Shown here: positions 15,964-45,608 of the stretch, one piece after another
Position numbering within the stretch: position 1 is the first letter of the stretch
How the letters are laid out: each line of letters opens with the position of its first letter
Source of the DNA: Candidatus Iainarchaeum sp.
GTDB taxonomy: Archaea > Nanobdellota > Nanobdellia > Pacearchaeales > GW2011-AR1
DNA: 45,608 nucleotides
Reading direction: 5' to 3'
Assembly (NCBI GenBank): GCA_043815085.1
Contig: JBDRJG010000005.1
Location: forward strand, 1 to 45,608
Translations under genes and position numbers: made by a program
Notes under the pieces: generated by a model
The model's database searches: none
What the model saw: the letters and a program-made list of their open reading frames with translations, nothing else
What the model was told of the DNA's origin: nothing

Positions 15964-15977
15964 TTTTTAAAGCTTTC
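15964..15977 (-). promoter_or_regulatory. BRE-TATA promoter facing dnaG
   Basis: Minus strand GAAAGC-TTTAAAAA. Confidence 0.6.
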
Positions 15978-15986
15978 TTATCTCTT

Positions 15987-16774
15987 AACACAGTCCGATA
16001 AGTAAATAGTGTCCGAAAACTGTCCGAAGAGCAGACAAGCTTTCAAACCAAGCATTAGATGGAGAATATGAATATAAAGAATAATTTTTAGTTTAAGAAT
16101 ATATTAATTTAATAATAGTAACAATATAGAAAGATTTAAATAATTAAAGTTATCAAGAAAACCATGAGATTAAAAACAATTGATGATAAAATAATTGAAG
16201 AAAGGCTGTCACGGTTTGAAGGAAGACATTTTAGATTACTTAATAGGCTTGCTACAAAAAATCTGAAAGAAAAAATTTCTGATAATAGTTCTCTTAGAAA
16301 TGTAAATAATCATCTAAAACAATATTTTGGATCTGAATACAGTTTAATAAAAGGGGTTAATTCTGCAATATATTCCAAATTAAATGGAAGTATAAAATAT
16401 ACGCGATTTAATGAAGCAAATTTGGGTTTAGTTATTGAAGGCAATGATGTCAACACAAAATATCACATAAAAGATTTAGAATCATTTATGAAATTTTCTG
16501 GAGTATATAATTCAGATATTTTTAAAAAACAGAAAATAATAAATTCAGGAATTGCAGGTGGAGCTACAATAAATAGTTCAGATGTTGCATATAATGCTAC
16601 AATAAATAATTCACATGTTGCAAGTGGAGCTACAATAAAGGATAATTCACATGTTGCAGGTGGAGCTAAAATTAAAAATTCATATATTGGGGAAGATGCA
16701 AAAAAAGATTCTTCCTCAAAAATTGCTTATAATATTAAATACATTTAGTCTTTAGGAACTTTTCGGACTGAGTT
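15987..16774. mobile_element. Non-autonomous TIR element (788 bp) with perfect 9-bp TSD and one passenger gene
   Basis: TIRs aacacagtccgataagt (15987-16003) and acttttcggactgagtt (16758-16774) match at 15/17. ttatctctt occurs at 15978-15986 and 16775-16783. Confidence 0.85.
16164..16748 (+). CDS. Hypothetical protein with C-terminal left-handed beta-helix-like repeats
   Basis: IAGGATINSSD VAYNATINNSH VASGATIKDNSH VAGGAKIKNSY repeats; own BRE-TATA. Confidence 0.7.
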   Translation: MRLKTIDDKIIEERLSRFEGRHFRLLNRLATKNLKEKISDNSSLRNVNNHLKQYFGSEYSLIKGVNSAIYSKLNGSIKYTRFNEANLGLVIEGNDVNTKYHIKDLESFMKFSGVYNSDIFKKQKIINSGIAGGATINSSDVAYNATINNSHVASGATIKDNSHVAGGAKIKNSYIGEDAKKDSSSKIAYNIKYI

Positions 16775-16805
16775 TTATCTCTTGCAGAAAAAAATAATTT
16801 TTATT

Positions 16806-17345
16806 TTAAGCCAATTTCTTACCAAACTTGCCAAGTTGCTCGTATAGAATCAAAAGTTTCTGCTTAATTTCCCCTCTTTCACTATCTGAAATTTTCATAA
16901 TCAAGAGTTTTTCGTATATTTTCACAGCATTGTTTCTCTTTGATTCTTTCTCGCAGATTTCCGCTTGTTTTTTGTAGACGTTCTTTATATTATTATAGAT
17001 TTCAGCTTTCTTAATAATTGTTGAGAGTTCTATTGCTCTTCTCATTGCAGAATCTGCTTTCTCAAAATATCCTGCTTTTATATAATACTCTGCTTCTTTT
17101 ACAAAATAATCCACTCTTTCAGGATAAGAGAGAGAATTAATTGCAAGTTGCTCATACATTCTTGCAACATCATTGAACATTCTTTTATTTTCATAGATTT
17201 CAATGAGCTTCATAAGTGCGAATTTCTTAATATGAATCGCGGGCTTTTTATCAATAAATTTTGTAAGATAATCAATCTGAACAAAATCTCCTTTTTCTCT
17301 CAACTCTTTTTCAATCTCGCTTTTAGACATGTCTTTATCGAGCAT
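16806..17345 (-). CDS. TPR-like helical protein
   Basis: AEYYIKAGYFEKADSAMRRAIEL and AVKIYEKLL TPR-like motifs. Confidence 0.7.
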   Translation of the reverse strand: MLDKDMSKSEIEKELREKGDFVQIDYLTKFIDKKPAIHIKKFALMKLIEIYENKRMFNDVARMYEQLAINSLSYPERVDYFVKEAEYYIKAGYFEKADSAMRRAIELSTIIKKAEIYNNIKNVYKKQAEICEKESKRNNAVKIYEKLLIMKISDSERGEIKQKLLILYEQLGKFGKKLA

Positions 17346-17401
17346 AATAAAAACAGAATTCTTGGGTTTTTAAGCATTGTTGAGATTTTAAAGTGAATAA
17401 T

Positions 17402-17683
17402 TCATTTGGAATTCTTATAAGGGTTATTCATATAATTTTTACATATGTAGCAAACTTCCTCAATTGTTTTGACAACTAAATATAATGCTATTGACAATCT
17501 TTCCAGACCTGAAGACAGATTACCTCTTTTTTTATCTTCTTTTGATTGTTTTTTATACTCCCTACTTAATTCTTTGAAACATTCTCTCTGATAAAAGTAA
17601 TTAGTGTTCCCAAATTCTTTTGCAAACTCTTTTGGAGTTAATTCTTTAAAATGAATAGGGTGCTCATCATACTCTTTTCCCAT
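17402..17683 (-). CDS. Hypothetical protein
   Basis: ORF; likely start MGKEYD directly after the upstream stop. Confidence 0.55.
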   Translation of the reverse strand: MGKEYDEHPIHFKELTPKEFAKEFGNTNYFYQRECFKELSREYKKQSKEDKKRGNLSSGLERLSIALYLVVKTIEEVCYICKNYMNNPYKNSK

Positions 17684-17684
17684 T

Positions 17685-17870
17685 TTAAGCCCTCGGAAAT
17701 TCATCATTTATATCAAAAGAATTTATCATGTTTTTTCTTGGAATATAACAATCTTCTGGATTTACCTTATCATCTAGATTTCTTCCGAAACCATCACAAT
17801 TTTCGCATGCTTTTCGTGTTCCATATTTTACGCATTTGTATTCTTCTGGTTTTATTTCTTGTTCTTTCAT
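17685..17870 (-). CDS. Small Cys-containing hypothetical protein
   Basis: 61 aa with CENCDG; GAGGGT SD upstream. Confidence 0.5.
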   Translation of the reverse strand: MKEQEIKPEEYKCVKYGTRKACENCDGFGRNLDDKVNPEDCYIPRKNMINSFDINDEFPRA

Positions 17871-17889
17871 TTTAATTATTTTTACCCTC

Positions 17890-18153
17890 TTAATTTCTTA
17901 GCAATTTCTTTATTTTTTCATATCTTTCTATGCATTCAAAAGAACTATAAGGATCATTCTTTGCATCATGATTAGATTCACAACATCCAACAGTATAACC
18001 AAATTCCATTGCTTTTTCAATTAAACTTTTTGTTGATTCATCTGTCTCGGGGTTTTTGACAACTTCCTCTAATTCTTTTCCAAGAGCACTAATAATTCCT
18101 TTTTTATCTGTCATCTTAATAAATTCCATCTTAATAAATTCCAATAACCCCAT
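17890..18153 (-). CDS. Hypothetical protein (start uncertain)
   Basis: 87-aa ORF; the 5' end contains a 15-bp tandem duplication (18112-18141). Confidence 0.5.
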   Translation of the reverse strand: MGLLEFIKMEFIKMTDKKGIISALGKELEEVVKNPETDESTKSLIEKAMEFGYTVGCCESNHDAKNDPYSSFECIERYEKIKKLLRN

Positions 18154-18253
18154 ATTTTTCTTTCATTAACTTTCCTTCAACACCAGAATTAAATTTTTTA
18201 AACTCCTCCCCTAAACCTACTTTTTCTGAAATTTCTTTTGCACTTTGCGTCAT
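18131..18253 (-). CDS. Possible 40-aa hypothetical protein (MTQSAKEISEKVGLGEEF...)
   Basis: Manually translated ORF filling the gap after EF-1A; below the ORF-track cutoff. Confidence 0.35.
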   Translation of the reverse strand: MTQSAKEISEKVGLGEEFKKFNSGVEGKLMKEKYGVIGIY

Positions 18254-18287
18254 TTTAATCTTTAGCAGAACTATTCTCTGAAGCCAA

Positions 18288-19571
18288 TCACTTCTTTTTT
18301 ACAATCTCAGCGCAGAAACCAGCAGCAACTGTTATTCCTGCGTCTCTTATAGCAAACTTTGACATATATGGGTTTTCTTTCTGAGTCTCTAAAGCTAAAG
18401 CTCCCTGTGGTCTAATTTTTACTTTAGCAGAGTCCCCATTTTTCAAGAAATCAGGATGTTCTTTTATAACTTCACCTGTTCTTGGATCAATCTGAGAAAT
18501 TAATTCTGTAAACTGGCAAGGAACTTGTGCAGTATGAACATGAAATACAGGGGTATATCCTTTAGCTAAAACAGTTGGATGATTGATTACTGTAATTGTC
18601 GCAATAAATTCCTCTACAATTGATATTGGATAAGCAGCGTCGCAGATAACATCCCCTCTTGCAATATCTTTCTTCCCCAATCCTCGAATGTTGACCCCAA
18701 CATTATCTCCGGCAAGAGCTTCAGAATGAGATTCATGATGCATTTCAATTGTTTTTACTTCTCCTTGAACTCCTTCTCCAGTTCTTCCAGGTATGATTTT
18801 GACTTTTTGCCCGACTTTCATAATTCCAGTTTCAATTTTCCCAACTGGAACAGTTCCAATTCCCGTAATTTCATAAACATCTTGAACAGGCATTCTCATT
18901 GGTAAATTTGTAGGCAATTCAGGGGCAGGGAATAAATCAAGTTGTTCCATTAAAGTAGGCCCCTTGTACCAAGGCATATTTGTTGATTTTTTGAATATAT
19001 TGTCTCCTTTTAATCCAGAAGCTGCAACAAAAACAGTATTTTCTGGCTTGATTCCAACCCCTTGCAGTAATTTTCCTATATCTTCTTTAACTTTGTTGAA
19101 TTTAGCTTCATCATATCCTAAAGCATCCATCTTATTTATTATAATAGCAATATTTTTGACACCCATAGTTCTCAAAAGCCATAGATGTTCAGTTGTTTGC
19201 AGTTGAACTCCAGCGGGAGCAGCAATAACTAAAAATGCAGCATCTGCTTGTGAAGCACCAGTAATCATGTTTTTAACAAAATCTTTATGTCCAGGAGCAT
19301 CAATTATTGTAATTTGAAATTTATTAGTCATAATTTTTCTATAAGCTAAATCAATTGTAACTCCTCTTTCTCTTGATTCTCGAATTTGATCCATAATATA
19401 AGCGAATTCAAAACCAGCTTTTCCATGCTTTTCAGCTTCAGCTTTTAATTTTGTCATTTCTTGTTCTGAAACTATTCCACTGTCGAACATTAATCTGCCC
19501 ACGCAAGTAGACTTGCCAGCGTCGACGTGCCCTACGAACACAACATTCATGTTTGGTTTTTCTTTAGCCAT
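18288..19571 (-). CDS. tuf: Translation elongation factor EF-1 alpha
   Basis: GHVDAGKST, ERGVTID, DAPGHKDFVKNMITGASQAD, NKMD. Confidence 0.98.
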   Translation of the reverse strand: MAKEKPNMNVVFVGHVDAGKSTCVGRLMFDSGIVSEQEMTKLKAEAEKHGKAGFEFAYIMDQIRESRERGVTIDLAYRKIMTNKFQITIIDAPGHKDFVKNMITGASQADAAFLVIAAPAGVQLQTTEHLWLLRTMGVKNIAIIINKMDALGYDEAKFNKVKEDIGKLLQGVGIKPENTVFVAASGLKGDNIFKKSTNMPWYKGPTLMEQLDLFPAPELPTNLPMRMPVQDVYEITGIGTVPVGKIETGIMKVGQKVKIIPGRTGEGVQGEVKTIEMHHESHSEALAGDNVGVNIRGLGKKDIARGDVICDAAYPISIVEEFIATITVINHPTVLAKGYTPVFHVHTAQVPCQFTELISQIDPRTGEVIKEHPDFLKNGDSAKVKIRPQGALALETQKENPYMSKFAIRDAGITVAAGFCAEIVKKK

Positions 19572-19748
19572 TTTTTATTTCCTTAGTTTAAAATGGATAG
19601 AAATCGTTAGATTTCTTTAGCCATAGTTTAACTTAAAAAAAGTGGATTTATAAACTTTTTGCTTTATTTTTTGAGATCTTTTCCTGTAATTTTATCATTT
19701 TTTATCATTTATCATCGGGATAATCTGACTAGGAATTAAAATTAAATA

Positions 19749-20054
19749 TTAAATGCAATTTTGGATTGACGCTTCATATGCTGTTTTCTTTTCCGAAACA
19801 CTTAAAATTATTCTTTGTTCATATTTTCCTGTATTTACATTAATATGATAGTTTCTTGATTTTTCATCATATCCAATAATCTTTATACCAGAACCATTGT
19901 TTGAATTTCTATGATTCCCGAAATCAATGTGTTTAACAAAATCTAATCTTTCAAGTTTTTCAATAATTGAACAAATCTCTTTTGGAACATGATTCTTTTT
20001 TCCACATTTCTTTCCGTGAATGTTTTTTACCTCTTTTGATTTTATTTTTGACAT
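19749..20054 (-). CDS. Hypothetical protein
   Basis: 101-aa basic ORF. Confidence 0.55.
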   Translation of the reverse strand: MSKIKSKEVKNIHGKKCGKKNHVPKEICSIIEKLERLDFVKHIDFGNHRNSNNGSGIKIIGYDEKSRNYHINVNTGKYEQRIILSVSEKKTAYEASIQNCI

Positions 20055-20108
20055 TTTTGTTTCAAAATTATATACTTTAAAAAAATTGTGGTGTTAATTA
20101 GTTCATTT

Positions 20109-20387
20109 TTAAAGTTCTTCATATTGGACAGTTTTTTCTAATCGGTCCCCGCTTTTCTTCTCTTCTTTTTTTTCTATAAAATTTTTAATATAATTAACAG
20201 GATTCCATTCTTTAGTTACAATTCCTGTTCCAAGATATGTTATCTTTATTATAAATGGAATAGCATAAACACTGAATCCGATGGTTCCCAAAATACTTCT
20301 TTTACTTTTTGGTTTTTTAAACTCCCTGTAAACTCCGACACCAGGAACTACATACCCTGCGTAGTAAATAGCTTTTTTCCAATTCAT
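20109..20387 (-). CDS. Small hypothetical membrane protein
   Basis: Hydrophobic segments, GAGGA SD, TTTATAAA upstream. Confidence 0.6.
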   Translation of the reverse strand: MNWKKAIYYAGYVVPGVGVYREFKKPKSKRSILGTIGFSVYAIPFIIKITYLGTGIVTKEWNPVNYIKNFIEKKEEKKSGDRLEKTVQYEEL

Positions 20388-20422
20388 AAGTCCTCAAAGA
20401 GAAAAATTGTTTATAAATTTAA

Positions 20423-22621
20423 TTATTGATTCTCAGCCAATCCCTTTCTATCCCTTATCTTTCTTATAACATCATCTTGCAATGATGCTGGAATCTTCTC
20501 AAACTGCTGGTCCATTAATGATGATGTTCCACGTCCTTCTGTCGCTGAGCGCAAATCACTGCTCCATCCAATCATTTCTGCAACAGGAATCTTTGCTTTT
20601 ATTTGTGCCAACCCCATTTCTTGTGTCATGTCAAGTAGTTGTCCTCTCTTTCCCCCAATAAGTTTTGTAGCAGCGCCCATAAAATTCTCTGGAACTTCTA
20701 CCAAGTGAACTTGCAGAGGTTCAAGCATTGTAGCATTTGCACCTCTCATTGCTTCGGTTATAGCCTCTCTGACAGCAGGATAAACTTGTGCAGGCCCTCT
20801 ATGGATGGCATCCTCATGCAGCCTTATATCCTCCAAAATAACTTTCATTTTCATGCATGGCTCTCTTGCTAAAGGCCCCTGATCCATAACCATTTCAAAT
20901 GCATCCAAAACCATTTCAATTACTTCTCCAATATGAACTTCCCCCCTTGTTTCATCAAAGAACATATTTCCTTTGTAAATATCTTTGACATTTCTTATTT
21001 CATCACTTCCCCAACCCTTATTTGAGAGAACATTTGTAACTGTTTCACTTTTTTTCTTGATTCTTCCTTCAGGAAGCTCCCCTTTTTCTATTAATTCATC
21101 TAATTCTGGGCTTAAAGGTTCAACTTTCATGAAAAAACTATTGTGCTTGTTTGGACTTCTTCCTTCAAATGCCTGTCCTGAAGATTTTCCAACTGACTCC
21201 CTATAAACAACAATTGGATTTGAAGTCTTTACTTCTAGGCCTTTTTCAGTTTTAATTCTGTTTTCAATAATTTCGAGATGCAATTCCCCCATTCCTGAAA
21301 TTAAACTTTCTCCAGTCTCTTCATTTATTGTGACTTTTATAGAAGGGTCTTCTTTTGAAACTTTTTTCAATATATCAATAAGTTTTGGCAGGTCTGCAGT
21401 TTTAACAACTTCAATTGATTTTGTAATAACTGGCTGGAATATGTGCCTTATTTCTTCAAATGAAGTTTCTTCTTTTTCTGTAATCGTCTCTCCAACATCC
21501 AGATTCAATCCACTAACAGCAAGGACATTTCCTGCAGGAACACTTTCCAATTGTTCTGGTTTTATTCCATTATAAATAAGAACCTGTTGTATCTTCCCCG
21601 GGCTTTTCGCATTATTTGCATAAACATTCATTCCGCTTTTTATTGTTCCTGAATATATTCTTCCTGCTGAAATCTCTTTTCCAGAACGAGGGTCAATTAC
21701 AATTCTTGTTATAATAAATGCTAATTCTCCTTTCTTGTTGCAGTTCATTAAATCTTTTCCAAATTGACTTTCTAAGTCTCCTTTCCATATTTTTGGTATT
21801 CTGTATTTTTGCGCATCTATAGGATTGGGAAGATGTTTAACAGCCATATCAAGAATAACTTCATAGAGAGGAGCATTTGCCCAAACCCATTTATCTCTCT
21901 CTTCCGGGGACATAGTTCCATCATATAATTTATATATATCTTTGAAACTTATTTTCTTTTTTTTCATAAATGGAATAGAAAGTGCCCAGTTTTCTCTCGC
22001 AGAACCAAATGTAACACTTCCGTCTGAAACACTTACCTTGAATTGTTTTGCAAATTCTTTTTCAGCAATCTGATCAATTAAATGATTAAATCTTTCAATT
22101 ATTTTTTTAAATCTTTCCTGCATTTGTTCAGGAGTTACCTGCAGTTCGTTTATTAATCTGTCAACTTTATTTATGAATAAAACTGGCTTTACTCTTTCTT
22201 TAAGAGCCTGTCTTAAAACTGTTTCAGTTTGAGGCATTATTCCCTCAACTGCACATACAAGAACGAAAGTCCCATCAATTGCTCTCATTGCTCTTGTAAC
22301 ATTTCCACCAAAATCAACATGTCCGGGGGTGTCAATTAAATTAATCAAATACTCTTCCCCTTGAAAATTGTGAACCATAGAAACATTTGCAGCGTCGACA
22401 GTAAGCAATCTTTCCTGCTCGTCAGAATGCTGCCATGTAGCCATTCCTTCTTCCAAATCTCCTGCATTCTTAGAAGCCATCATTCCTGCTGCAGCGAGCA
22501 AATTGTCTGTAAATGCAGTCTTACCGTGATGAATGTGCGCGCTCGTCGCTACATTTCTTATGTTTTCCTGTTTTGAAATTAAACGTTTAATTTTTTCTAA
22601 ACTTGTTTCTTTGTCTGCCAT
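20423..22621 (-). CDS. fusA: Translation elongation factor EF-2
   Basis: DTPGHVDF, NKVDR, GMGELHLE, diphthamide loop LHEDAIHRG. Confidence 0.98.
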   Translation of the reverse strand: MADKETSLEKIKRLISKQENIRNVATSAHIHHGKTAFTDNLLAAAGMMASKNAGDLEEGMATWQHSDEQERLLTVDAANVSMVHNFQGEEYLINLIDTPGHVDFGGNVTRAMRAIDGTFVLVCAVEGIMPQTETVLRQALKERVKPVLFINKVDRLINELQVTPEQMQERFKKIIERFNHLIDQIAEKEFAKQFKVSVSDGSVTFGSARENWALSIPFMKKKKISFKDIYKLYDGTMSPEERDKWVWANAPLYEVILDMAVKHLPNPIDAQKYRIPKIWKGDLESQFGKDLMNCNKKGELAFIITRIVIDPRSGKEISAGRIYSGTIKSGMNVYANNAKSPGKIQQVLIYNGIKPEQLESVPAGNVLAVSGLNLDVGETITEKEETSFEEIRHIFQPVITKSIEVVKTADLPKLIDILKKVSKEDPSIKVTINEETGESLISGMGELHLEIIENRIKTEKGLEVKTSNPIVVYRESVGKSSGQAFEGRSPNKHNSFFMKVEPLSPELDELIEKGELPEGRIKKKSETVTNVLSNKGWGSDEIRNVKDIYKGNMFFDETRGEVHIGEVIEMVLDAFEMVMDQGPLAREPCMKMKVILEDIRLHEDAIHRGPAQVYPAVREAITEAMRGANATMLEPLQVHLVEVPENFMGAATKLIGGKRGQLLDMTQEMGLAQIKAKIPVAEMIGWSSDLRSATEGRGTSSLMDQQFEKIPASLQDDVIRKIRDRKGLAENQ

Positions 22622-22635
22622 TTTGTATTTTTTGT

Positions 22636-23238
22636 TTATCTCGCACTATCAGCTTGTGCCTCGCTTTCTTTCTTTTTTCTTATCGCAAGGCTTTCACCAT
22701 TTTTGTCAGCAGCCATAATTATCTCTTCTGCTAAAGTTTGAGTTATTGTCTTTTTTTTATTAAATGCTTTGTCTGAAGCTCCGTGAATCAGATGTTTCAG
22801 AGACAAATTTACTCTTCTTATTGGTGAGACATCAACTGCCTGCGGATATCTTGCACCACCATATTCAATTACAGTGATTTCATCTCTTGGAGCAGCATTT
22901 TCAATTGCATCCACCAAAACTTGAACAGGATTTTTCCCTGTTTTCTTTTCCACAATTTCAAGAACATCCAAAATAATTTTCATATTTTTTGTATACTTTC
23001 CTGTTGCTCTTCCTTTCTCAATCTTGTGTTTTTTCCCTCGATGTCCGCCAACAGCAAGCCTATTCATCAATCTTTCAACAAGATTAACTTTTGTCTGCCC
23101 GAGTTTAACAACATTTCTTCCCTGGCTTTTCAATATTAATTTTGGCTTGAGGTTTATCACTTGTTTTAATCCAGGATCTTTAACCTCTATTTTGGATAAA
23201 TCATATTTGTCAAATATTTTGAAATTTTGTTCTGTCAT
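22636..23238 (-). CDS. rps7: 30S ribosomal protein S7
   Basis: NPVQVLVDAIENAAPRDE, YGGARYPQAVDVSP. Confidence 0.97.
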   Translation of the reverse strand: MTEQNFKIFDKYDLSKIEVKDPGLKQVINLKPKLILKSQGRNVVKLGQTKVNLVERLMNRLAVGGHRGKKHKIEKGRATGKYTKNMKIILDVLEIVEKKTGKNPVQVLVDAIENAAPRDEITVIEYGGARYPQAVDVSPIRRVNLSLKHLIHGASDKAFNKKKTITQTLAEEIIMAADKNGESLAIRKKKESEAQADSAR

Positions 23239-23239
23239 T

Positions 23240-23452
23240 TTAATTTTTCTTTGTTAATTTCTCAAGTTTATTAATAGATTTACCAAATTCATCAATTTTT
23301 ATTTGTAATTCTTCTGTTTTTGGGATAAAATAATTGTTAGGCCAATTATTAAATCTTTTAAGGGTCTTTTTCTTTTGTAAATTAAAATATATGTTTACCC
23401 CTACACCCACCAATGCAATCCCCCCCATAGCAATTAATTGATATTCATCCAT
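23240..23452 (-). CDS. Small hypothetical membrane protein within the rps12-rps7 operon
   Basis: N-terminal TM; 1-bp gaps to both neighbours. Confidence 0.6.
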   Translation of the reverse strand: MDEYQLIAMGGIALVGVGVNIYFNLQKKKTLKRFNNWPNNYFIPKTEELQIKIDEFGKSINKLEKLTKKN

Positions 23453-23453
23453 T

Positions 23454-23738
23454 TTATTTTGTTAACTCCTCTAATTTTGAAATAATCTCTGGATGATCTG
23501 TTTCAACAAAAATTTTAACTTTATTATCAAATTGCATTAAATTATTTTCTTTCTTGCAAACAAAAGAATTCAATGAAACTATTACTCTTCCACCAAAATC
23601 AGATAATTCATCCTTAGGAGTATAAAAGATACTTGGGATTTCTGAACTATTTTTTGCACCTGCCCCATAGGTCTCCAATAGATATTTTGAAACTTTTGAA
23701 TTAAATTGTTCAAGACTACACAGATATTCTCGTTTCAT
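23454..23738 (-). CDS. Hypothetical protein within the rps12-rps7 operon
   Basis: ATG overlaps the rps12 stop (TAATG). Confidence 0.6.
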   Translation of the reverse strand: MKREYLCSLEQFNSKVSKYLLETYGAGAKNSSEIPSIFYTPKDELSDFGGRVIVSLNSFVCKKENNLMQFDNKVKIFVETDHPEIISKLEELTK

Positions 23739-24160
23739 TATCGTCTACCCTTCTGTATTCTTCCAAGCCATAATCTGTCGAGAGGCTGGTCATTTACTTT
23801 TATAACTTTATATCTAACACCCGGAATATCTCCTTTAGAACGCCCCTGTTTTCCACCTATTCTTTCAATCATAACCTCGTCGTGTTCATCTATAAATCTC
23901 TGTGCCAGATTTCCTGGAATAAATGCAGTAACACTTCGTCCGTTTTTTGTTAGCTGAACTTTGCAGCATTTTCTCATCGCTGAGTTTGGCTGTTTAGCTT
24001 CTTTTTGAATTTTTGAAAGAACAATTCCTTTGGCTTGATTTGCACCCCCCAAAGGATCTGATTTAGCATAAAGACCTAAAGTTCTAACTTTGTATTTTCT
24101 ATCTTTCCATTGAAATTTTTTTCTGTCTTTTATTTTTTTGAAAGCACTCTTTAATCCCAT
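23738..24160 (-). CDS. rps12: 30S ribosomal protein S12
   Basis: [22 protein letters not shown]. Confidence 0.97.
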
Positions 24161-24205
24161 TGTGAATATAAATTAATTAGAAAATTAGTTTTTAAAGGTT
24201 TTTAT

Positions 24206-24622
24206 TCAAACAATCCTAAAATCCCTCTTGAAAAAATCTTTCACTATGCTCCGCATTTCAATAACTCTTCTTCGATTTCTTCCAATAAGTGCAGCTTTAC
24301 TTTGCATTCCCGCTGTTAGAACTATTTCATTTGGAAAAATCTCTAGACTTTTGAAAGTTACAGGACTAACTACTGCTTCAATAAATAATTTTATGTCTTT
24401 AACCTCTTTTGGAAAAGGAACTACTTTTATTCTCTTTTTAAGAATTTCACTCATTCTTCTAATATTTCTTGCGTCTGGCCCAAGGGATTTTGAAATTAAA
24501 TTTCTTGGAACAGAAAAAATTATTGCATTATTATACTGAAAACAATAACGGGTGATCACGCCTGTTATTCTTTCGAAGAGATCTAGATATCTTAAATCCT
24601 GCATATTAAGTGTATTTACCAT
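24206..24622 (-). CDS. nusA: Archaeal NusA-like KH-domain factor
   Basis: Two KH domains (LIGRNRRRV); conserved position between rpoA and rps12. Confidence 0.88.
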   Translation of the reverse strand: MVNTLNMQDLRYLDLFERITGVITRYCFQYNNAIIFSVPRNLISKSLGPDARNIRRMSEILKKRIKVVPFPKEVKDIKLFIEAVVSPVTFKSLEIFPNEIVLTAGMQSKAALIGRNRRRVIEMRSIVKDFFKRDFRIV

Positions 24623-24668
24623 TTTTTATTATTGAGTTTTTAGAGGGTTTTGTTTTATAAATTTATTG

Positions 24669-27600
24669 TTATTTATTCACATTTTCAACAATTTTAGAAT
24701 CAGCTGTTTTCTTTTCAGATTCTTTTTTTGTCAAAGGTCCGATAACTTTGACGAGCAAACCAGGCAATCCTGTTCCAACAGGAACTGGTTGATTCAGAAT
24801 TATATTTTCAATGACACTCAATAATTTATCTTCGCTTCCTTTCACAGTTGCTTTCACAAACTGAGTAACAGGAGTCTCGAAGGTTGCCCTCGCCAATATA
24901 GAAGACTTTTGCGCAATAATCCCCATTCTCGTAACCCCTTTTATTTCTCCTGAATTTGTCATGGCATCAGTGACGAGTTTAAGATGCCTTATATCAATAT
25001 CTAATCCCTGTGTCTTAAGAACTTCTTTTATTTCGTTTATTAGCAATCCCCTTGCAACCTCAATTCCAAATATTTCAGCAACTTCATAAAAGTCATTGGA
25101 AATTGTTTTATCTTTATTTACTTCCTTTAATTTTATAATCTCTTTCAAATTGGTTCCAAGACTCATAATTATAAAGTTCTTGTCTCTCTTAACAACCAAA
25201 ATCTGCTCAATTCCTTTTATTCCTGAAATAGTCACTTCTTTTAATTTTTCTTTGAGTTTGTAAAGTTCCTTGAATCCAATTTCGCCAGCATTTAATACTA
25301 TTGAATCTTGTTTTTCTTTAAGATGAAACCCTAATTCGTGCAATTTTTCTATAATTCTCTTTATTGTTGTATGAGTTTGCCTCAATCCTTCTTTGTCGAT
25401 TTTTATTTCAATTTTCTTATCGCTGAAGTCCAGAATAATCTCAGAAGATATTTCCTTTAATTTAACTTCTTTAATTTTTTCAGCAAGAATTTTTGATCCC
25501 TTTTCAGCATTCCATTCTTTGTTAAGATGAATTTCCATCTTTGGAGAAGAAGGTTTTTTTCTTGCATCAAAAATTTCTATAAGTCTTGGAAGTCCCTGTG
25601 TAACCTGCATTTCTGCAACACCCGCCATATGGAATGTTCTTAAAACCATTTGTGTAGAAGCTTCTCCAAAAGATTGTGCTGTTACAATTCCAATTGCCTC
25701 CCCAGAATCTAATTTCTCTTTTAGATGAAGTCTTGTAACATCCAGTCCGTCATCTCCGTATTTGAATTCTATTATGTTATTGTTGCTGTCTCTTACTGTC
25801 TCATCGTATTCAACTCTTAAGTCTTGAAGAGCATTTGCAAGTCTTCTATATAAATAACCAGATTTTGGGGTTCTTAATCCAGTATCCATAAGAGAATCTC
25901 TTCCTGTTACTGCTTGAAAGAAGAATTCATCTGGCCTTAATCCTCTTATGAATGAACTTCTTATGAATCCTCTCGCTTTCGGAGATAAATCTCCTTTTTT
26001 GAAGAAGGGCAATGTTCTTTCATTGTATCCAAAATCAATTCTTTTGTTTCCCATTGCTTGTTGTCCGACACATGAAGCTATTTGAGTAATATTCAGAATA
26101 TTTCCTCCGCCTCCAGATTTAATCATGCTGTTTACAGGATTATTTTTTGGGAATTCTCTCTTTACAATCTCTCCGATTTTTGTTCTTACTTCATTTAAGG
26201 TCTGAAGAATTCTTATCTCTCTGGATTCTTCTTTTGTCTTTCCTGGAATCAGTTCAAAAGAGGAACTGTTGTAAGATTCAATTATCTCCTCTGCTCTTTT
26301 CTGCGCTCTTTCAATAACTTCTCCGCATTCTTTAAGAATATTTTCATTTAAATCCAAATCATTCACAGAAATTGTTATTCCTCTATCTGTGAGATAATTT
26401 TTTCCTAAATCAAACGCCTTCTTAATTATTTTGAAAGTCTCTTCTCTTCCAATAACTTTGTCAAGAACCTTGATTAAGTCCCCATCTTCTACTCCAAGAA
26501 CAGTTTTGTCAATGATTCCTTTTGTCACCTCCCCATCTTTTATAGTGATAGAATCATTGGAGAAACTAACATTATTTGGAAATATCTTTGAAAAAATTTC
26601 CTTTCCAGAAACCACTTTTTTAGAAAAATGCCCGTCTATATTTGAATTAAATAAAAGCTGATTTGCATAATCTGAAGTAAATTCTTCAAGCCCTAAAAGG
26701 TAATTTCCTGTTATTGAATCACTTATGCATCCAACAAGATTAGTGTTATTTTTTGGAGAAATCAAATTTCTTTTTACATCCAGCAATATTTTTGCTTCAG
26801 CTCTCGCCTCTTCATTTTGAGGAGAGTGAATATTCATTTCATCACCATCAAAGTCAGCATTGTATGGAGTTGCAGCAGCAGGATGCAATCTAAATGTTCT
26901 TCCTGGAAGAACTTTTACAAAGTGAGCCATTAAGCTTCCTCTGTGCAGGCTCGGATGCCTGTTGAATAAAACAATATCTCCATCCTGTAAATGTCTTTCA
27001 ACTTGATATCCAGCAGTAAGTTCATTTATGATTTCTTCTTTTAAGTCAATGGAAATCTTTTTTCTTTTTCCATCAGATCTTATGACATAACTCGCACCAG
27101 GATATTCCTCCCCTTTTTCAATTAATTTTTTCAATTTTTCTATATTCAAATCATTCACAGTTTCAGCAACTGTAACAACTTTTGCAATTTCCAAAGGTAT
27201 CCCGACTTCATTTATATTAATGAACGGATCAGGCGAAATCACTGTTCTTCCTGAATAATTTACTCTCTTTCCCGCAATATTTTTTCTTATTCTTCCTTCT
27301 TTACCTTTTATTCTTTCTGTAATTGTTTTTAACGGCTGCCCGCTTCTGTGTCTTGCAGGAGGAACTCGGGTTATAGTATTATCGAAGAAAGTTGTAATGT
27401 GATATTGTAATAAGTCCCATAAATCCTCTATAATAACTTCCGGAGCACCTGCATTCAGATTTTCCCACAATCTTTGATTAGCTCTTATAATATCAGAAAG
27501 TTTATGTGTTAAATCATCTTCAGAACGCTCTCCTGTTTCAAGAATAATTGAGGGCCTAACAGTTACCGGAGGAACTAAAAGCGAAGTAAGAACAGCCCAT

Positions 27601-33557: not shown

Positions 33558-33708
33558 TTTCTATTTCTTAGTTAGAGATTATATACTATTTTAAAAACTT
33601 AACTAGTAGACTTTTTAAACAGGGCTTACTTTATAAACAAAGCCGGTAGCGAGGGTTTTTAATCAGAAAGGAGCAGTACCCCTATAAGTCTCAACAAATT
33701 GTGAAATT

Positions 33709-34095: not shown

Positions 34096-34191
34096 TCCAG
34101 AAATACTCCCTTTTTAACAATTATTATGTTTAAAGAGATACATATACATTAATAAATAAAATATTATAAACTTCATATTAGAGACTAATCC

Positions 34192-34533: not shown

Positions 34534-34592
34534 TCAAAAATGGCCCCGAACTGAAATTAAAATTTCGTTTGCTGTTCCATAAACAAGTTTTA

Positions 34593-34667
34593 TGGCCCCG
34601 AAGGGATTTGAACCCTCGACACCTGGATTAAAAGTCCAGTGCTCTAACCAGACTGAGCTACGGAGCC
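34593..34667 (-). tRNA. tRNA-Lys(TTT)
   Basis: GGCTCCG/CGGGGCC acceptor stem, CTGGA-CTTTTAA-TCCAG anticodon arm, GTTCAAAT T loop. Confidence 0.95.
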
Positions 34668-34825
34668 GTATTATCAACTTGCTCTATATTCAGGATGGTT
34701 TGTGCTTTAGCACTTTAACTAGACTGAGCTACAGAGCAATCATACCATTTTTATTAGAAAATACTTTATAAAATTATCTTATAGAACACAATTATCTTTA
34801 TAATTCATTAAAAACACAGAAAAGC

Positions 34826-35551
34826 ATGGAGTTTGAAGCTAAATTTGATAGGCTATTTGCTAGTAAGCCAATAATAGGGATGGTTCATCTTGCTGGGAAT
34901 AATAAAGATGAAAAAATTAAAAGAGCTTTGGAAGAATTATCTATCTATGAGCAAGAGGGAGTTGACGGGGCGATAATTGAAGACTACCACGGGCCTGCAG
35001 AGTATATCTATGAGACTTTAAAAGAAGTACAAAAAAATAATTATAAGATAATTCTTGGTGTTAATAATCTTAGAAACCCCTATGCCAGTTTTCATTCAAA
35101 AAATCTTGGGGCAAAATTCGTACAATTTGACAGTGTTCAAAACAAAGATTTAAACTTAGAAAATTATAATGAATTTAGAAAAGTTTATGCTGATATGATT
35201 GTTCTTGGAGGAATTAGATTTAAGTATACCCTGCCTACTGGAAACTCTCTAGAAAAAGATTTAGATGAGGGAAAATTAAATTGTGATGCAATTGTTACAA
35301 CAGGAGAAGGAACAGGCATAGAGACTCCAATAAAGAAATTAAAAGTATTCAAAAGTTATCTTGGAGACTTCTCTTTAATTATAGGTGCAGGATTGAATAC
35401 AGAAAATGCCTATGAGCAACTTCAAATTGCAGATGGGGCAATAGTAGGAAGTGCATTTAAGCCAAACAAAAATACCAGATTACCTGTGGATAAATATCTT
35501 GTTAGGGAATTAATTGATATGGTAAAGGAGGTTAGAAAAAATGGAATCTAA
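34826..35551 (+). CDS. btpA: BtpA/SgcQ family TIM-barrel protein
   Basis: IIGMVHL, DAIVTTGEGTG, ADGAIVGSAFK. Confidence 0.85.
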   Translation: MEFEAKFDRLFASKPIIGMVHLAGNNKDEKIKRALEELSIYEQEGVDGAIIEDYHGPAEYIYETLKEVQKNNYKIILGVNNLRNPYASFHSKNLGAKFVQFDSVQNKDLNLENYNEFRKVYADMIVLGGIRFKYTLPTGNSLEKDLDEGKLNCDAIVTTGEGTGIETPIKKLKVFKSYLGDFSLIIGAGLNTENAYEQLQIADGAIVGSAFKPNKNTRLPVDKYLVRELIDMVKEVRKNGI

Positions 35552-44000: not shown

Positions 44001-44391
44001 CTCTCATTTTAGGTAATATTTTATTATATTCTACAGAAGACCATTCATCAGAAATAGATTTTGAAAGGATTTCTGCATTTAGATCATCAAAAGTTTCAAA
44101 AACAGCTTCTTCAACATCTTCAACTCTGGGGGTTTTTTTCTCACTATATTTAAAGAACCCATTCTCTTGTGTTACGGACTGAAGTTTCTCACCAACTCTC
44201 ACAACAAAGTTCTTGAGATGTTCTTCATTATAATTTATTCCAGAGGCAACAGAAGCTTTTCTCACTGCATCTACAATCTTTTCGGGGGTATATTTTACAG
44301 TCTTTGTCTTTTCTCCTCTTTTTATGATTGCTGTAATTGGTTTACCTAGTTTTGGTGTTAATAATTCATCTAACGAATCTGGTATTTTCAT
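41059..44391 (-). CDS. nrdD: Class III ribonucleotide reductase with N-terminal ATP cone(s) and C-terminal thioredoxin-fold domain
   Basis: IHLHDL, QCCRL finger loop, ETPGES, zinc ribbon, RIVGY glycyl-radical loop, then CPQC..TYPT. Confidence 0.93.
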   Translation of the reverse strand: MKIPDSLDELLTPKLGKPITAIIKRGEKTKTVKYTPEKIVDAVRKASVASGINYNEEHLKNFVVRVGEKLQSVTQENGFFKYSEKKTPRVEDVEEAVFETFDDLNAEILSKSISDEWSSVEYNKILPKMREMVKGVDSTGAFYRRYKEGRELVREKLINLPFAVDFDSTDKQLGIHALDNGTASKFNSDVMELLIVENTSVSYEDARKAVKRLEEILANRKTSRLVEKEELLSIVDSSLMELGYAPKDLLGGRRVNISLDDIEQIIYSRSVENSNIQANNPEAVNLSIAELALKEYALREIFDEDVAEAHKNGKIHLHDLGYPDRVYCSAHSVEFIKKYGLDKTVANLDSKSHPAGDDPKVLNNHIHTFLAAIQSSYAGALGFPMLNTLYGPSLLKEIKVVEGKEILRNSGGKIEKEIPRRMKRENLEEKLEEEKERVKRMEGGFIDTIEDEEGVFVPLPLFEFKETNSYKMLKEYSKKELKEVAQNLIFGASQSAFSRGGQTLFIDFNIDLSTPNYVKNIPALFSKATYIKTKQNKRGEWEIVERNKQEPLRNKDEDVIQPEDGTVYMTYGHELVKKASQDFAEALLEIFKEGDKYGVPFNFPKCDVHVGEETFNDPAQERLLQKACEVVEHNDSVYFMFDRGDGMNVAQCCRLRERITDPYMLKHPEKMRFCGFQNVSINLPQTGYNAKGENLEEKLESTLGEIDKSMIYALKAHTNKRRYIQNLLDTEGSPLRDMGANSDDGEPYIDLNKASYIIGIIGLNELVQHLTGKELHEDAEAYKLGLKIISHMHSMKNQMSEKYKMKFIIEETPGESANRRFAKLDLIRYPEETKPIIKGNIEEDEVYYTNSAHLRPDAKVSGLDRAILQAKTNPMIEAGAITHLFTGEKKNKANATYDFVKSIYYNTQSSQVVFSGEHTSCCACGNHTRGLVDKCPECGNEDSSQISQKTRIVGYFSDPRSWNKSKKGELKDRQKAMEHYVGEASSLHDLEAELYKSIIEEGKIRVGILGTPECPQCTRAQEIAERQIKKLPKEMAENIELVKYDLRNEDDRVIAAIYNAPIDTYPTIVVHKGDKVERFSSEYNGKTRTINSPIFKTMLEKVVDYAPVTN

Positions 44392-44406
44392 TTTTCTACC
44401 ATCTTA

Positions 44407-44844
44407 TTATAATCTTCTCAATTCTTGTTTAAAATCTTTTATGTCCTCGAATTGTCTATATACAGATGCAAATCTTATATAGGCTATATTATCAATTTTC
44501 TTTAATTTCTTCATAACTGTCTCTCCAATAAGCGAACTTTGGATTTCTTTCTTTCCGTATTTTCTTATTTGTTCTTCAATTTCGTTTAGCATCTTTTTTA
44601 TTTTTTCTTGCGAAACAGGGCGCTTTTCAAATGCTCTTTCAATTCCAGCTTCAAGCTTTTTTAAATCAAACTTTTCACGCCTGCCGTCTTTTTTTATAAC
44701 ATATAAATCGCCTCTTTCAATTCTTTCATATGTTGTAAATCTCTTTTTGCATTTCAGGCACTCTCTCCTCCTCCTTATTCCATCTGGAGAACCTCTTTTA
44801 TCGGTCACCCTTGATTCGAGATGTGTGCAGTATGGACAATTCAT
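44407..44844 (-). CDS. nrdR: Transcriptional repressor NrdR
   Basis: MNCPYC, IRRRRECLKCKKRFTTYE, ATP cone, AYIRFASVY. Confidence 0.96.
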   Translation of the reverse strand: MNCPYCTHLESRVTDKRGSPDGIRRRRECLKCKKRFTTYERIERGDLYVIKKDGRREKFDLKKLEAGIERAFEKRPVSQEKIKKMLNEIEEQIRKYGKKEIQSSLIGETVMKKLKKIDNIAYIRFASVYRQFEDIKDFKQELRRL

Positions 44845-44856
44845 ATTATTTATAGC

Positions 44857-44904
44857 ATACAAGATGTTGTATGTTTAGTACCTCTGTATTACCACAGGTT
44901 GTAT
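44857..44904 (-). promoter_or_regulatory. Tandem NrdR boxes (44857-44872, 44889-44904)
   Basis: ATACAACATCTTGTAT and ATACAACCTGTGGTAA resemble acaCwAtATaTwGtg and lie 32 bp apart. Confidence 0.8.
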
Positions 44905-44974
44905 CTAGTGAAATACTCTTAAAAATAGGTACTATTTAAATATTTACAACTATTTAATAAAAGTGACAGGATTA

Positions 44975-45608
44975 GGCTTTGTTTAAAAAGTCCTGATTTG
45001 GTTTGACTTATTAAACAGGATTTCTTTCTCAGCCTATTTCTTAGCGTAGTTGTTGAAGAGTACAAATATTTATAAATTCTTAAAGTTTTGTTAAAAAATG
45101 GGTAGAGTAGAGATTGGAAAACAAGTAGATTACAAAACTTTAGAAACAGCACTTGTTAAAGCAGCAGAGGAGATTGGGTGGAAAGCCAAAGTTCAAGATA
45201 AATTTGAAAGGAATTACAAACTTGGTTCTGTTCAGGAAACACAAGATTATAGTCATACAATGGTTAATTTAAGAGGAAGAGTGTTTCCTGCAATGAAAGT
45301 ATATATTTCTAATAAAAGTCCTACAGACAGATTTTATGTTTGGCAAGGCTTTCCGTGTGGTTTAGTTTCTGAAAGAAAAATTCAAGAATATCTAAGTGCT
45401 GTTTCTAGAAATCTATAAATTCTTCAGCAATTTTGTTAAAATCTTGTTAGACAAAGTTTAAAGAAAAAAGAACTTAGAATTAAGTTTTAAACAGAAAATT
45501 CACCGATACTTTGGAGGCATCCGGATTAAAAAGTTGTGTTGGGAGATGTTGATAATTTATTATCACAATAAAATTTAAATATGCAAAAGAGTGGGGAGAA
45601 TTATGGAT
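44975..45608. mobile_element. End of another TIR element, apparently running off the window
   Basis: ggctttgtttaaaaagtc TIR, 12-bp spacer, inverted inner site gacttattaaacag; homology to 32208-32387. Confidence 0.65.
45098..45418 (+). CDS. Hypothetical passenger protein
   Basis: 106-aa ORF; TTTATAAA about 25 bp upstream. Confidence 0.6.
   Translation: MGRVEIGKQVDYKTLETALVKAAEEIGWKAKVQDKFERNYKLGSVQETQDYSHTMVNLRGRVFPAMKVYISNKSPTDRFYVWQGFPCGLVSERKIQEYLSAVSRNL

Follow-up and report, generated by a model that had tools for sequence, protein, structure and literature searches.

Archaeal IS5-type elements that insert at the upstream edge of BRE-TATA promoters, and their probable transposase-free derivatives in Candidatus Iainarchaeum

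A family of archaeal IS5-type elements inserts with its duplicated 9 bp abutting the upstream edge of BRE-TATA promoters, and the promoters are those of housekeeping genes. We found no description of a promoter-edge targeting rule of this kind for archaea in the literature searched. The window, the whole stretch of DNA analyzed, is positions 1-45,608 of contig JBDRJG010000005.1 from Candidatus Iainarchaeum sp. (GCA_043815085.1), 45,608 nucleotides; the contig stops at 45608. Three loci in the window have transposase-free cassettes bounded by inverted repeats: 15987-16774, 31766-33644, and from 44975. These very probably derive from an archaeal IS5-family insertion sequence that has IS903-like ends and inserts at promoter edges, and are non-autonomous. 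With the same high probability they are mobile insertion cassettes, with inverted repeats, a 9-bp duplication, one to three passengers with their own promoter, and no transposase.

The spacing between repeat and promoter was the same at all three loci. At each, an A/T 8-mer had its start precisely 23 bp outside the repeat (15964-15971, 31743-31750, and 44952-44959). This leaves the 9-mer plus 6 bp between the repeat and the TATA-like box, with 15 bp separating the repeat tip from the box's first T. A sequence-only reading of this DNA had cited six ends, all of which lay where it had placed them, and its 9 + 6 bp spacing was exact at dnaG and rpoH, with BRE-like GAAAGC and CAAAGG. The end pattern had six matches in the window versus 0.46 expected, which is not an independent test because the pattern was derived from those sites. 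The independent tests of the pattern and the spacing are scans of other genomes.

The cassette upstream of dnaG (locus 1) has a perfect 9-bp duplication. The features are:

15964-15977, - strand: host promoter beside cassette 1 (sequence; conservation in congeners)
15978-15986: target duplication, left copy TTATCTCTT, 9/9 identical to the right copy
15987-16030, + strand: left end of cassette 1, with a 17-bp AAC-type terminal repeat at 15987-16003
16129-16142, + strand: cassette 1's own BRE-TATA (GAAAGA + TTTAAATA; sequence)
16164-16748, + strand: passenger ORF, 194 aa (ORF list, repeat and profile search)
16758-16774, - strand: right terminal inverted repeat (repeat search)
16775-16783: target duplication, right copy TTATCTCTT, a perfect 9-bp direct repeat

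The dnaG TATA box (15964-15971, TTTTTAAA on the + strand) and the BRE-like 6-mer (15972-15977, GAAAGC on the - strand) point to a conserved leader of ~250 nt and then dnaG (14572-15714). This promoter stretch was kept in congeners up to 15977 and not beyond, and one relative (G170) has a 7.8-kb element at the corresponding dnaG promoter. Of the 17 positions in the inverted repeats (15987-16003 and 16758-16774), 15 match (88% complementary), and subterminal GTCCGA repeats are at 16011 and 16022. The cassette's own promoter stops 21 nt before the ATG at 16164, matching the 21-22 nt mode of box-to-start spacing elsewhere.

At rpoH (locus 2), cassettes are stacked upstream of a promoter that serves the rpoH-rpoB-rpoA block, which rpoH opens. 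The features are:

31447-31653, - strand: rpoH, RNA polymerase subunit Rpo5/H (PF01191, 8.4e-16)
31743-31756, - strand: host rpoH promoter (sequence; conservation in congeners)
31757-31765: 9-mer copy 1, GGTAGCGGG (repeat search)
31766-31801, + strand: left end of cassette 2a, with an 18-bp GGC-type terminal repeat at 31766-31783
31895-32224, - strand: passenger ORF of cassette 2a, 109 aa (ORF list)
32342-32387, - strand: right end of cassette 2a, terminal repeat 32370-32387
32388-32396: 9-mer copy 2, GGTAGCACG (repeat search)
32418-33557, - strand: cassette 2b passengers, 97 aa (32418-32711), 68 aa (32726-32932), and 193 aa (32976-33557)
33609-33644, - strand: right end of cassette 2b, which also closes the whole insert, terminal repeat 33627-33644
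33645-33653: 9-mer copy 3, GGTAGCGAG, 8/9 versus copy 1

The TATA box is at 31743-31750 and the BRE-like 6-mer (CAAAGG on the - strand) at 31751-31756; this stretch was kept in 11/11 congener loci shown, and similarity ends directly after it. Locus 2 has one left end (31766-31783) and two right ends that stop at 32387 (internal) and 33644. There is no left repeat after 9-mer copy 2, so cassette 2b lacks one. Subterminal copies of the repeat are direct at 31788-31801 and 33609-33626, and inverted at about 32343-32355. The 109-aa passenger likely starts at the ATG at 32212, behind GGGGAG. From the three 9-mers, the outer pair therefore matches at 8/9 and the inner pair at 7/9, so that of the duplications claimed at two loci, the one at locus 1 is perfect but that at locus 2 is not. 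The 9-mers of locus 2 thus differ at one or two positions, and the copies may be old. In one metagenome contig (run X1), copy 1 reads GGTAGCAAG, with changes at 31763/31764; the metagenome contigs had no clean filled/empty polymorphism.

The flank near nrdR (locus 3) is the weakest of the three cases in the window. The features are:

44407-44862, - strand: nrdR, the host gene nearest the third insertion (Zn_ribbon_NrdR 7.8e-17, ATP-cone 1e-23)
44952-44974: flank of cassette 3a (sequence)
44975-45018, + strand: left end of cassette 3a, terminal repeat 44975-44992
45063-45418, + strand: cassette 3a's own BRE-TATA (45063-45076), then a 106-aa passenger ORF (45098-45418)
45440-45608, + strand: degenerate end-to-end junction (~45440-45470), then a second cassette, inside which the contig ends

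The flank has the TATA-like 8-mer (44952-44959) that had been noted here, at 23 bp, but the 6-mer (44960-44965) between it and the 9-mer (ACAGGATTA, 44966-44974) is not BRE-like. The conserved nrdR TATA sits ~20 bp further on than this 8-mer. In two relatives (G011 and G018), the sequence continues beyond a similar 9-mer without an element. The left end of cassette 3a has an inverted subterminal copy at 45005-45017 (92%). The interior of the second cassette resembles the reverse strand of 32208-32353 (78% over 45485-45575; 85% over the last 38 bases).

The cassettes carry orphan passengers, as proposed from the sequence. Profile and PADLOC searches gave no family for the 109-aa, 106-aa, and cassette 2b passengers, although the 193-aa protein of 2b groups into unnamed protein clusters. 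The 194-aa passenger of cassette 1 has 33-nt internal repeats and no PADLOC match; its weak hexapeptide (left-handed beta-helix) signal, below the Pfam cut-off, is the one Pfam match among window passengers.

The spacing held well beyond the window. A TATA box began 22-24 bp outside the inverted repeat in 41 of 95 non-redundant ends in the scan of relatives (background of 0.5-1.9 per offset window). These counts overstate independence: many ends belong to related genomes, and at sites hit repeatedly, rpoH for example, some insertions may have been inherited. GGC-type ends had a box in 29/70 (background mean 1.9, maximum 5) and AAC-type ends in 12/25 (background 0.5, maximum 2). In a separate scan of named records, there was a box at 9/27 archaeal ends and at 0/56 bacterial chance matches to the same 17-mer. 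The flank consensus, ACC|RAAA-NN-TTTAWAAA, is a canonical BRE-TATA directed away from the element. The last duplicated base was C in 63% of targeted sites, compared to 21% of the 84 generic BRE-TATA matches taken from this genome. No box was present at roughly half of all ends, as expected for the far end. Some complete elements also had none: by a strict rule, 20 of 28 pairs with a duplication had a box on at least one side, and at least four of the remaining eight had, by eye, TTTATATA, TATATAAT, or AATTTAAG in its place.

The targeted promoters belong to the host and serve housekeeping genes, in agreement with the proposed delivery next to essential genes. An outward ORF was within 400 nt in 39 of 41 box-side flanks, and in 15 of these 39 the start codon was 18-35 nt after the box. 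Genes behind targeted promoters included rpoH (six genomes), uL3, L7Ae, EF-1alpha, uS12, S17e, TFB, proteasome beta, RNase HII, and DnaG. The promoter is directed away from the element and left intact. The targeted box was conserved in relatives without the element, and therefore belongs to the host; unoccupied sites, which the sequence-only reading had called for, were present in relatives. Random insertion, with selection alone sparing copies just upstream of promoters in tiny, gene-dense genomes, is a very unlikely source of the pattern. The genomes span 0.5-1.7 Mb, their spacers are short, and insertions in genes would be purged. However, copies at gene 3' ends or in longer spacers would do just as little harm, and selection cannot produce a 1-bp phase: in 69 ends, the TATA-like 8-mer started at -23 in 25, -24 in 15, and -22 in 20, with no more than three at any other offset. 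This phase was equal for 48-bp mini-elements and 8-kb transposons.

The repeats are transposon ends, since related elements with matching repeats have DDE transposases and perfect 9-bp duplications. Elements of both end types (GGC and AAC) were present in related genomes, in both orientations, and included a 1.2-kb insertion sequence, 5-8-kb transposons with restriction and other defense genes, and 48-99-bp mini-elements. Among 52 candidate end pairs, the duplication was 9/9 in 24 and 8/9 in four. One element of 1213 bp (L056, in G341) encodes a 306-aa PF01609 protein; its 17-bp repeats are perfect and its duplication is 9/9. The larger elements encode DDE_Tnp_1 transposases, and PF01609 transposases were also inside L059, L060, L130, and L133 (E-values 6e-18 to 6e-22). 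The L060 protein scored 142.9 bits against the NCBI IS5 model NF033579 (cut-off 140). Transposases of GGC-type and AAC-type elements were 32% identical (9e-38).

Two other accounts of the repeats fit these elements poorly. It is extremely unlikely that they are transcription factor sites at a fixed distance upstream of promoters. The fixed TATA spacing, the paired direct or inverted subterminal copies, and solo copies beside the rpoH promoter in G011 and G109 would suit such sites, but 24 pairs are flanked by perfect 9-bp duplications of unrelated sequence, identical ends bound the 1.2-kb element with its DDE transposase, relatives keep the promoter without the motif, and contigs break at multi-copy ends. 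Equally improbable is placement by a site-specific recombinase, as for integron cassettes or integrative elements, with the tRNA-Lys next to rpoH as a hot spot. The 12 ORFs scanned at the three loci included no integrase, the 9-mers are wholly different between loci and genomes while the TATA spacing is constant, inverted repeats are at both ends, and autonomous relatives encode DDE transposases. These observations stand against tandem cassettes that each end in a similar site and then GGTAGC, an end-plus-inverted-copy hairpin like an attC site, and partial tRNA-Lys copies nearby in several relatives.

Mobilization in trans is unsupported in this genome. A DDE transposase acting in trans had been proposed; such transposases are in the elements of relatives, but none was found among the cassette ORFs, in the rest of this genome (84% complete), or, with the L060 protein as query, in 11 congeners (0/11). 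The window copies may therefore be old, fossils rather than trans-mobilized cassettes, and would have been placed by a transposase that this genome has lost or that its assembly lacks.

TBP and TFB may have a role in positioning, and we give roughly even chances that the transpososome either captures promoter DNA to which TBP/TFB have bound and which they have bent, or contacts TFB on the BRE. Pointing to a protein landmark, two transposase clades with unrelated repeats and different repeat specificities share one target phase, the signal is confined to one side of the duplication, and targeted sites have a fuller BRE (the C at the last duplicated base). The main alternative, which we consider possible, is that the transposase itself reads BRE-TATA as a one-sided, sequence-specific target, with TBP and TFB playing no part and the anatomy unchanged. 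The target consensus is sharp, its ACC preference is missing in generic BRE-TATA matches of this genome, and the transposases are small (306-422 aa), the shortest (306-344 aa) having little room for an extra domain. DDE transposase dimers are expected to prefer symmetric targets, whereas this signal is one-sided, which would argue against direct reading. The tolerated box variants (TTTATATA, TATTTAAA, and CTTATAAA) resemble TBP tolerance. None of the points against direct reading, the phase shared by two clades included, is decisive, and the observations fit protein-guided and sequence-guided targeting alike.

Each insertion would regenerate its target, a promoter with a single 9-mer copy beside it. 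The site could then be hit again, so that cassettes pile up upstream of one promoter, which would explain locus 2, locus 3, and a relative (G299) with a promoter, a 9-mer, a 739-bp element, an identical 9-mer, and then an older end remnant. Stacking needs later decay to account for cassette 2b without a left repeat and the degenerate right end of cassette 3a.

The elements resemble IS903 and the IS5-family insertion sequences of bacteria. The likeness to the IS903 end noted in the sequence-only reading was borne out: the 18-bp terminal repeats start with GGCTTTG, and the window repeat matches that of IS903B at 16/18 positions (PMC10569121). Also shared are the 9-bp target duplication and a single DDE_Tnp_1 transposase of ~300 aa, which in one relative passes NF033579; judged by their ends, the elements may belong to the IS903 subgroup. 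By tblastn, IS5-like elements were on 1064 plasmid records at ~25% identity. Unlike these bacterial sequences, the archaeal elements include a second end type (AAC...GTCCGA), carry passengers and subterminal copies of the repeat, and are phased on one side to a BRE-TATA promoter; their hosts are archaea.

Mobile insertion cassettes (MIC231 of Bacillus cereus and the qnrD mic), as described in passages of PMC3913671, have the repeats of a cognate IS, a target duplication, and a passenger that replaces the transposase, all of which the window cassettes share. Those in the window are archaeal, from an IS5-type parent whose transposase was not found in this genome or 11 congeners, promoter-phased, and stacked in tandem. 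The 48-99-bp archaeal relatives are MITE-like.

According to the passages of PMC3942029 consulted, TnGBS, ISLre2, and ISKra4 insert at sigma-A promoters, 15-17 bp upstream of the -35 box, and the one archaeal remark there is that ISH6 duplicates an AT-rich motif. As portrayed in those passages, they share with the archaeal elements the DDE type, a set distance upstream of promoters, and the capacity for large cargo with genes spared, but insert in one orientation rather than both and target a bacterial sigma-70 promoter instead of BRE-TATA. The Mutator-like analogy drawn earlier (IS256/ISLre2) did not hold: TnGBS, ISLre2, and ISKra4 belong to that superfamily, whereas the archaeal transposase is IS5-type (PF01609).

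In yeast, the position of Ty3 integrase is set by TFIIIB, a factor that includes TBP and Brf1, the homologue of TFB; TFIIIB guides other elements as well. If TBP/TFB guide the archaeal elements, Ty3 would be the nearest mechanistic parallel, although it is a eukaryotic retrotransposon that inserts at Pol III gene start sites and the archaeal element is a DNA transposon upstream of the BRE.

All of the terminal repeats that a sequence-only reading had proposed were found at their places in the window, where they delimit cassettes of two repeat types (AAC-type at locus 1, GGC-type at loci 2 and 3):

15987-16774, locus 1, near dnaG: a 788-bp segment with 17-bp inverted repeats agreeing at 15 of 17 positions, flanked on both sides by TTATCTCTT (a 9/9 direct repeat) and carrying a single ORF (194 aa) that has a BRE-TATA of its own 21 nt ahead of the ATG
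31766-33644, locus 2, near rpoH: one left end (31766) and two right ends (32387, closing cassette 2a, and 33644, closing cassette 2b, in which a left repeat is absent); a variant of GGTAGCNNG borders every end, and the outer pair agree at 8/9
44975 onward, locus 3, near nrdR: an end at 44975, a 106-aa ORF, a decayed end-to-end junction at about 45450 and then a copy of the interior of locus 2a, of which only the first part is present, as the contig ends inside this second cassette

The genome (G000) is assembled in 32 contigs (616 kb, ~31% G+C, estimated completeness 84%), and a fifth GGC-type end lies on another of them, C12. The passengers in the window had been described as orphans, and this held: none had a Pfam or PADLOC family (PADLOC was run on seven proteins), the sole domain signal being a sub-threshold hexapeptide match. 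A protein atlas tied one passenger protein to Nanobdellota, and Rfam found tRNAs alone over the whole window. Groundwater metagenome contigs over 15200-35100 bridged the junctions at 31766, 32387 and 33644, and one contig began at 16775. These contigs contained no clean element-skipping joint and no filled/empty polymorphism; one had a joint from 31882 to 32283 (side 30), and one X4 contig departed from the window at 31759. Separately, the promoter and leader of cassette 1 (~16090-16205) had 30-90-nt matches of 78-97% identity at many sites in congeners, some at contig ends. We considered these matches, and those upstream of a 109-aa ORF (G018, G012), as element copies and rejected them, as no repeats surrounded those that we opened; the stretch looks like a shared strong promoter/leader module.

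The elements lie at a fixed distance from a TATA box. The spacing had been proposed from two exact cases, and it recurred when we scanned related genomes. We called boxes with a home-made rule (an A/T core with T at three or more of the first four positions and A at three or more of the last four), under which TTTATATA and TATTTAAC go uncounted. Identical flanks counted once, and we left out ends with an N in the flank and ends lying 45-70 bases or less from a locus edge. When 69 non-redundant GGC-type ends were aligned on the repeat tip, the start of the box was most often at -23 (25 ends), with 20 ends at -22 and 15 at -24, and every offset outside this range had three or fewer. The pooled proportion of ends with a box at -24 to -22 was 29/70 for the GGC type (background mean 1.9) and 12/25 for the AAC type (background mean 0.5), end counts that are inflated by kinship among the genomes. 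About half of the ends having a box is the expectation if each element faces a promoter with one end. The orientation was not fixed, as either a direct-type or an inverted-type end may face the box. In a separate scan of named records (80 loci examined, L147-L226, of 119 found), a box was present at 9 of 27 archaeal ends, from Micrarchaeota, Nitrososphaerota, Pacearchaeota and Woesearchaeota, and one further end had TTTATATA; as a control, 56 bacterial matches to the same 17-mer, mostly chance matches, had none.

The same phase was seen in pairs of ends with target duplications. Among 52 candidate pairs, the 9-mer was duplicated at 9/9 positions in 24 and at 8/9 in 4, and 20 of these 28 had a box by the strict rule on at least one side. 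Inspection by eye of that place in the other eight found TTTATATA in L177 and L203, TATATAAT in L245, AATTTAAG in L228 and a weaker box in the Nitrososphaera pairs. At locus 3 in the window, the 6-mer is not BRE-like and the conserved nrdR box is farther along. Between that conserved TATA box and nrdR, the window and congeners share two palindromic boxes (44860-44905; ACAAGATGTTGTAT-like and CCACAGGTTGTAT), which are probably NrdR boxes for autoregulation. We also considered whether the terminal repeat mimics a promoter, or lands at a repeat-like target, as the GGC-type tip resembles a CTTTYG beside the box. However, AAC-type ends keep the phase without this likeness, and we rejected the idea. 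We conclude that the TATA spacing is genuine.

To judge by what lies around them, the boxes are working host promoters. Read outward from the element, the flank consensus is ACC followed by RAAA-NN-TTTAWAAA, that is, an archaeal BRE and then a TATA box, with the final duplicated base as the C of the BRE. This base was C in 63% of the targeted sites, compared to 21% of 84 generic BRE-TATA matches in G000. An outward ORF (at least 60 aa, within 400 nt) was present in 39 of 41 box-side flanks, and in 15 of these flanks a start codon was 18-35 nt past the box, as with leaderless mRNAs; on the far sides, 32 of 52 had an ORF, at spread distances and with no cluster of start codons. The genes behind the boxes include rpoH (six genomes), uL3 (three), L7Ae (two, one of them on C12 of G000), EF-1alpha, uS12, S17e, TFB, proteasome beta and RNase HII, and DnaG both in the window and in G170, a genome of another genus. 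A Pfam check of ten target genes confirmed nine, and the tenth, at L048, was without a family.

Several features of the dnaG upstream region were seen alongside these results. The dnaG start codon is ~250 nt from the targeted promoter, and the stretch that separates them (15715-15963, minus strand) is conserved in congeners, has the same spacing of 249/250 nt in G170 and holds a hairpin around 15910-15940. There was no Rfam match at 15690-16000, and the stretch may therefore serve as a long leader or encode a small RNA not yet described. In five congener loci (L076-L078, L081, L084), a second BRE-TATA, pointing the other way, lies only 5 bp from the dnaG-side promoter and drives a divergent gene missing from the window; paired promoters of this kind may account for elements with a TATA box on both flanks (L052, L060). 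In four congeners (L074, L079, L080, L083), a short repeated unit of ~40-55 nt with CTTCGG hairpins adjoins the dnaG promoter and may be another miniature element.

The TATA box belongs to the host and not to the element. That it might be part of the element was rejected, as the box is conserved in relatives that have no element. Unoccupied sites, for which the earlier reading had proposed a search, were seen in relatives. At rpoH, in 11 of 11 congener loci, the rpoB-rpoH region matches as far as the BRE and no farther, and a tRNA-Lys follows after ~140 bp, preceded in G017 and G023 by a homologue of the window ORF at 33709-34095. At the locus 1 site, the promoter in G003 passes directly into the 3' end of a TPR gene, and the match in G004 extends to the first four bases of the 9-mer. 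At the locus 3 site, G011 and G018 have a similar 9-mer and then shared sequence with no element.

Solo end remnants adjoin the rpoH promoter in G011 and G109, and the order in G299 is promoter, 9-mer, 739-bp cassette, identical 9-mer and older end remnant, as predicted by repeated insertion into a rebuilt target. We infer that locus 2 arose in this way. Several relatives have partial copies of the tRNA-Lys ends, of 18-26 nt, on the flanks of the tRNA-Lys beside rpoH (34593-34740; L003, L010, L011, L012), and a partial copy in the window is at ~34713-34737. These copies look like scars of integrase-type insertions, which would make the rpoH spacer a hot spot for another type of mobile element as well. 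The tRNA-Lys in four relatives (L002, L007, L010 and L065, from G011, G016, G005 and G299) is interrupted past the anticodon region by ~40-46 nt that are probably an intron; the window copy has no such insert.

Elements with the same ends in relatives encode DDE transposases, for which a search had been suggested. Of 401 genomes sampled from the order, 231 had the GGC-type motif, often as inverted pairs or at contig ends, and records under the names Woesearchaeota and Pacearchaeota contained exact matches to the end motif. Relatives have the AAC-type motif of locus 1 as well; within the genus, a search with the A-type motif did no better than the reversed control except in G000, G007 and G019. 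In G341, a 1213-bp element (L056) with perfect repeats and a 9/9 duplication encodes a DDE_Tnp_1 protein of 306 aa (PF01609, 1.6e-9). Larger elements (4.8-7.8 kb) have the same ends, 9/9 duplications and DDE_Tnp_1 proteins of 325-422 aa; the transposases of L059, L060, L130 and L133 matched PF01609 with E-values of 6e-18 to 6e-22, and that of L060 passed the IS5 model NF033579 (142.9 bits, cut-off 140). The transposases of GGC-type and AAC-type elements are homologous (32% identity). At the other extreme, mini-elements of 48-99 bp are made up of the two repeats plus a single subterminal copy. The L056 transposase as query had no plasmid match. In a further search, the best plasmid matches were ISRm33-, ISAba10- and ISSod12-like, with ~25% identity. 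An enterobacterial match (L270) is an unannotated IS5-like stretch beside armA and, by the annotation table, not IS903.

The larger relatives L059, L060, L133 and L134 (from G242, G378, G170 and G386) carry defence genes. The kinds of cargo are a Dam/Dcm/HindVP restriction set (two-methylase, HindVP-like), an MmeI-like enzyme accompanied by a PD-(D/E)XK nuclease, and a primase of the TOTE type together with NurA and a HerA-like ATPase; L134 is a 6-kb AAC-type element with a GmrSD-HNH enzyme, and no transposase was identified in the two of its six ORFs that were scanned. Defence islands in these tiny genomes thus ride on promoter-seeking transposons.

The window copies are mobile insertion cassettes of an IS5-type family. 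In the definition given in PMC3913671, a mobile insertion cassette is bracketed by the inverted repeats of a known IS, has a target duplication and passenger gene(s), and lacks a transposase. Based on the ends, the duplications and the transposases of same-ended elements in relatives, this describes the window copies: cassette 1 in every respect and cassette 2 through its outer pair; cassette 3 is cut off by the contig end. Since they have no transposase, they are derivatives and not autonomous IS5 members. The PF01609/IS5-type DDE transposase is found in the same-ended elements of relatives, terminal repeats of ~17-18 bp with a GGC tip, as in the IS903 group, are present at 31766, 32387, 33644 and 44975 (the tip at locus 1 is AAC), and 9-bp duplications are present at locus 1 (9/9) and locus 2 (8/9). 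A likeness to the IS903 end had been noted, and the window repeat indeed equals the repeat of IS903B, an element with 9-bp repeats, at 16 of 18 positions (PMC10569121); the likeness is through repeats and duplication, and the cassettes are called IS903-like. The earlier pointer to Mutator-like IS256/ISLre2 elements did not stand, as Pfam and NCBIfam gave only DDE_Tnp_1/IS5-type matches and no Mutator-like (p-MULT) transposase. Integron gene cassettes, which have an attC site at one end and depend on an IntI tyrosine recombinase and attI, are disfavoured by the repeats at both ends, the varying sequence of the 9-bp duplications and the absence of a recombinase among 12 ORFs scanned at the three loci. 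There was no transposase homologue in the 84% complete G000 assembly, and the L060 query found one in 0 of 11 congeners, compared to 110 of 401 genomes of the order; the window copies may thus be old fossils.

What the transposase recognizes could be the promoter sequence itself or the promoter bound by TBP and TFB, and we lean to the protein-bound promoter, at odds of roughly even. Three observations favour it: the phase is common to two transposase clades whose repeats are unrelated, only one side has the signal, and the fullest promoters are those targeted. A broader model, which we hold more tentatively and judge somewhat short of an even chance, is that an archaeal IS5-type lineage lands by the TBP/TFB-occupied basal promoter. 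The lineage, spread among Woese- and Pacearchaeota-like Nanobdellota, Micrarchaeota, Nitrososphaerota and other archaeal phyla, would insert one and a half helical turns upstream of the TATA box, leave the promoter unharmed and rebuild the target at each insertion, and by that rebuilding cassettes and defence islands would stack ahead of the strongest housekeeping operons.

If TBP/TFB is the landmark, then the transposase would be reading the archaeal pre-initiation complex. If the broader model is true, the system would be the counterpart of an integron, without an integrase, and would parallel, as a DNA transposon, the targeting of Ty3 through TFIIIB. In uncultured archaea, the phase rule shows to within 1 bp where real promoters have their upstream edge; it also accounts for variable gene islands at rpoH, uL3 and similar operons of very small genomes, and suggests a natural safe-harbour insertion tool for archaea.

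Insertion with a promoter as landmark is known in a few Mutator-like elements of bacteria and in yeast retrotransposons. For archaea, we found no description of TATA/BRE-phased insertion in the main text of openly available papers. A word search of a 2026 survey of archaeal insertion sequences (PMC13343696) found neither promoter, TATA nor target site. The relevant passage of a 2019 survey of Thaumarchaeota (PMC6563490) classed passenger-carrying DNA transposons as undetected in archaea; the family described here shows cargo-bearing DDE transposons in archaea, with restriction-modification, GmrSD and TOTE-primase/NurA/HerA-like sets. The nearest working parallel is TnGBS/ISLre2, Mutator-like elements that, in the account of their targeting in PMC3942029, insert in a fixed orientation 15-17 bp upstream of the -35 box of sigma-A promoters. 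The cassettes here resemble them in action but are not members: the enzyme family, the promoter type and the orientation rule all differ, and the fixed distance seen here is to the archaeal TATA/BRE.
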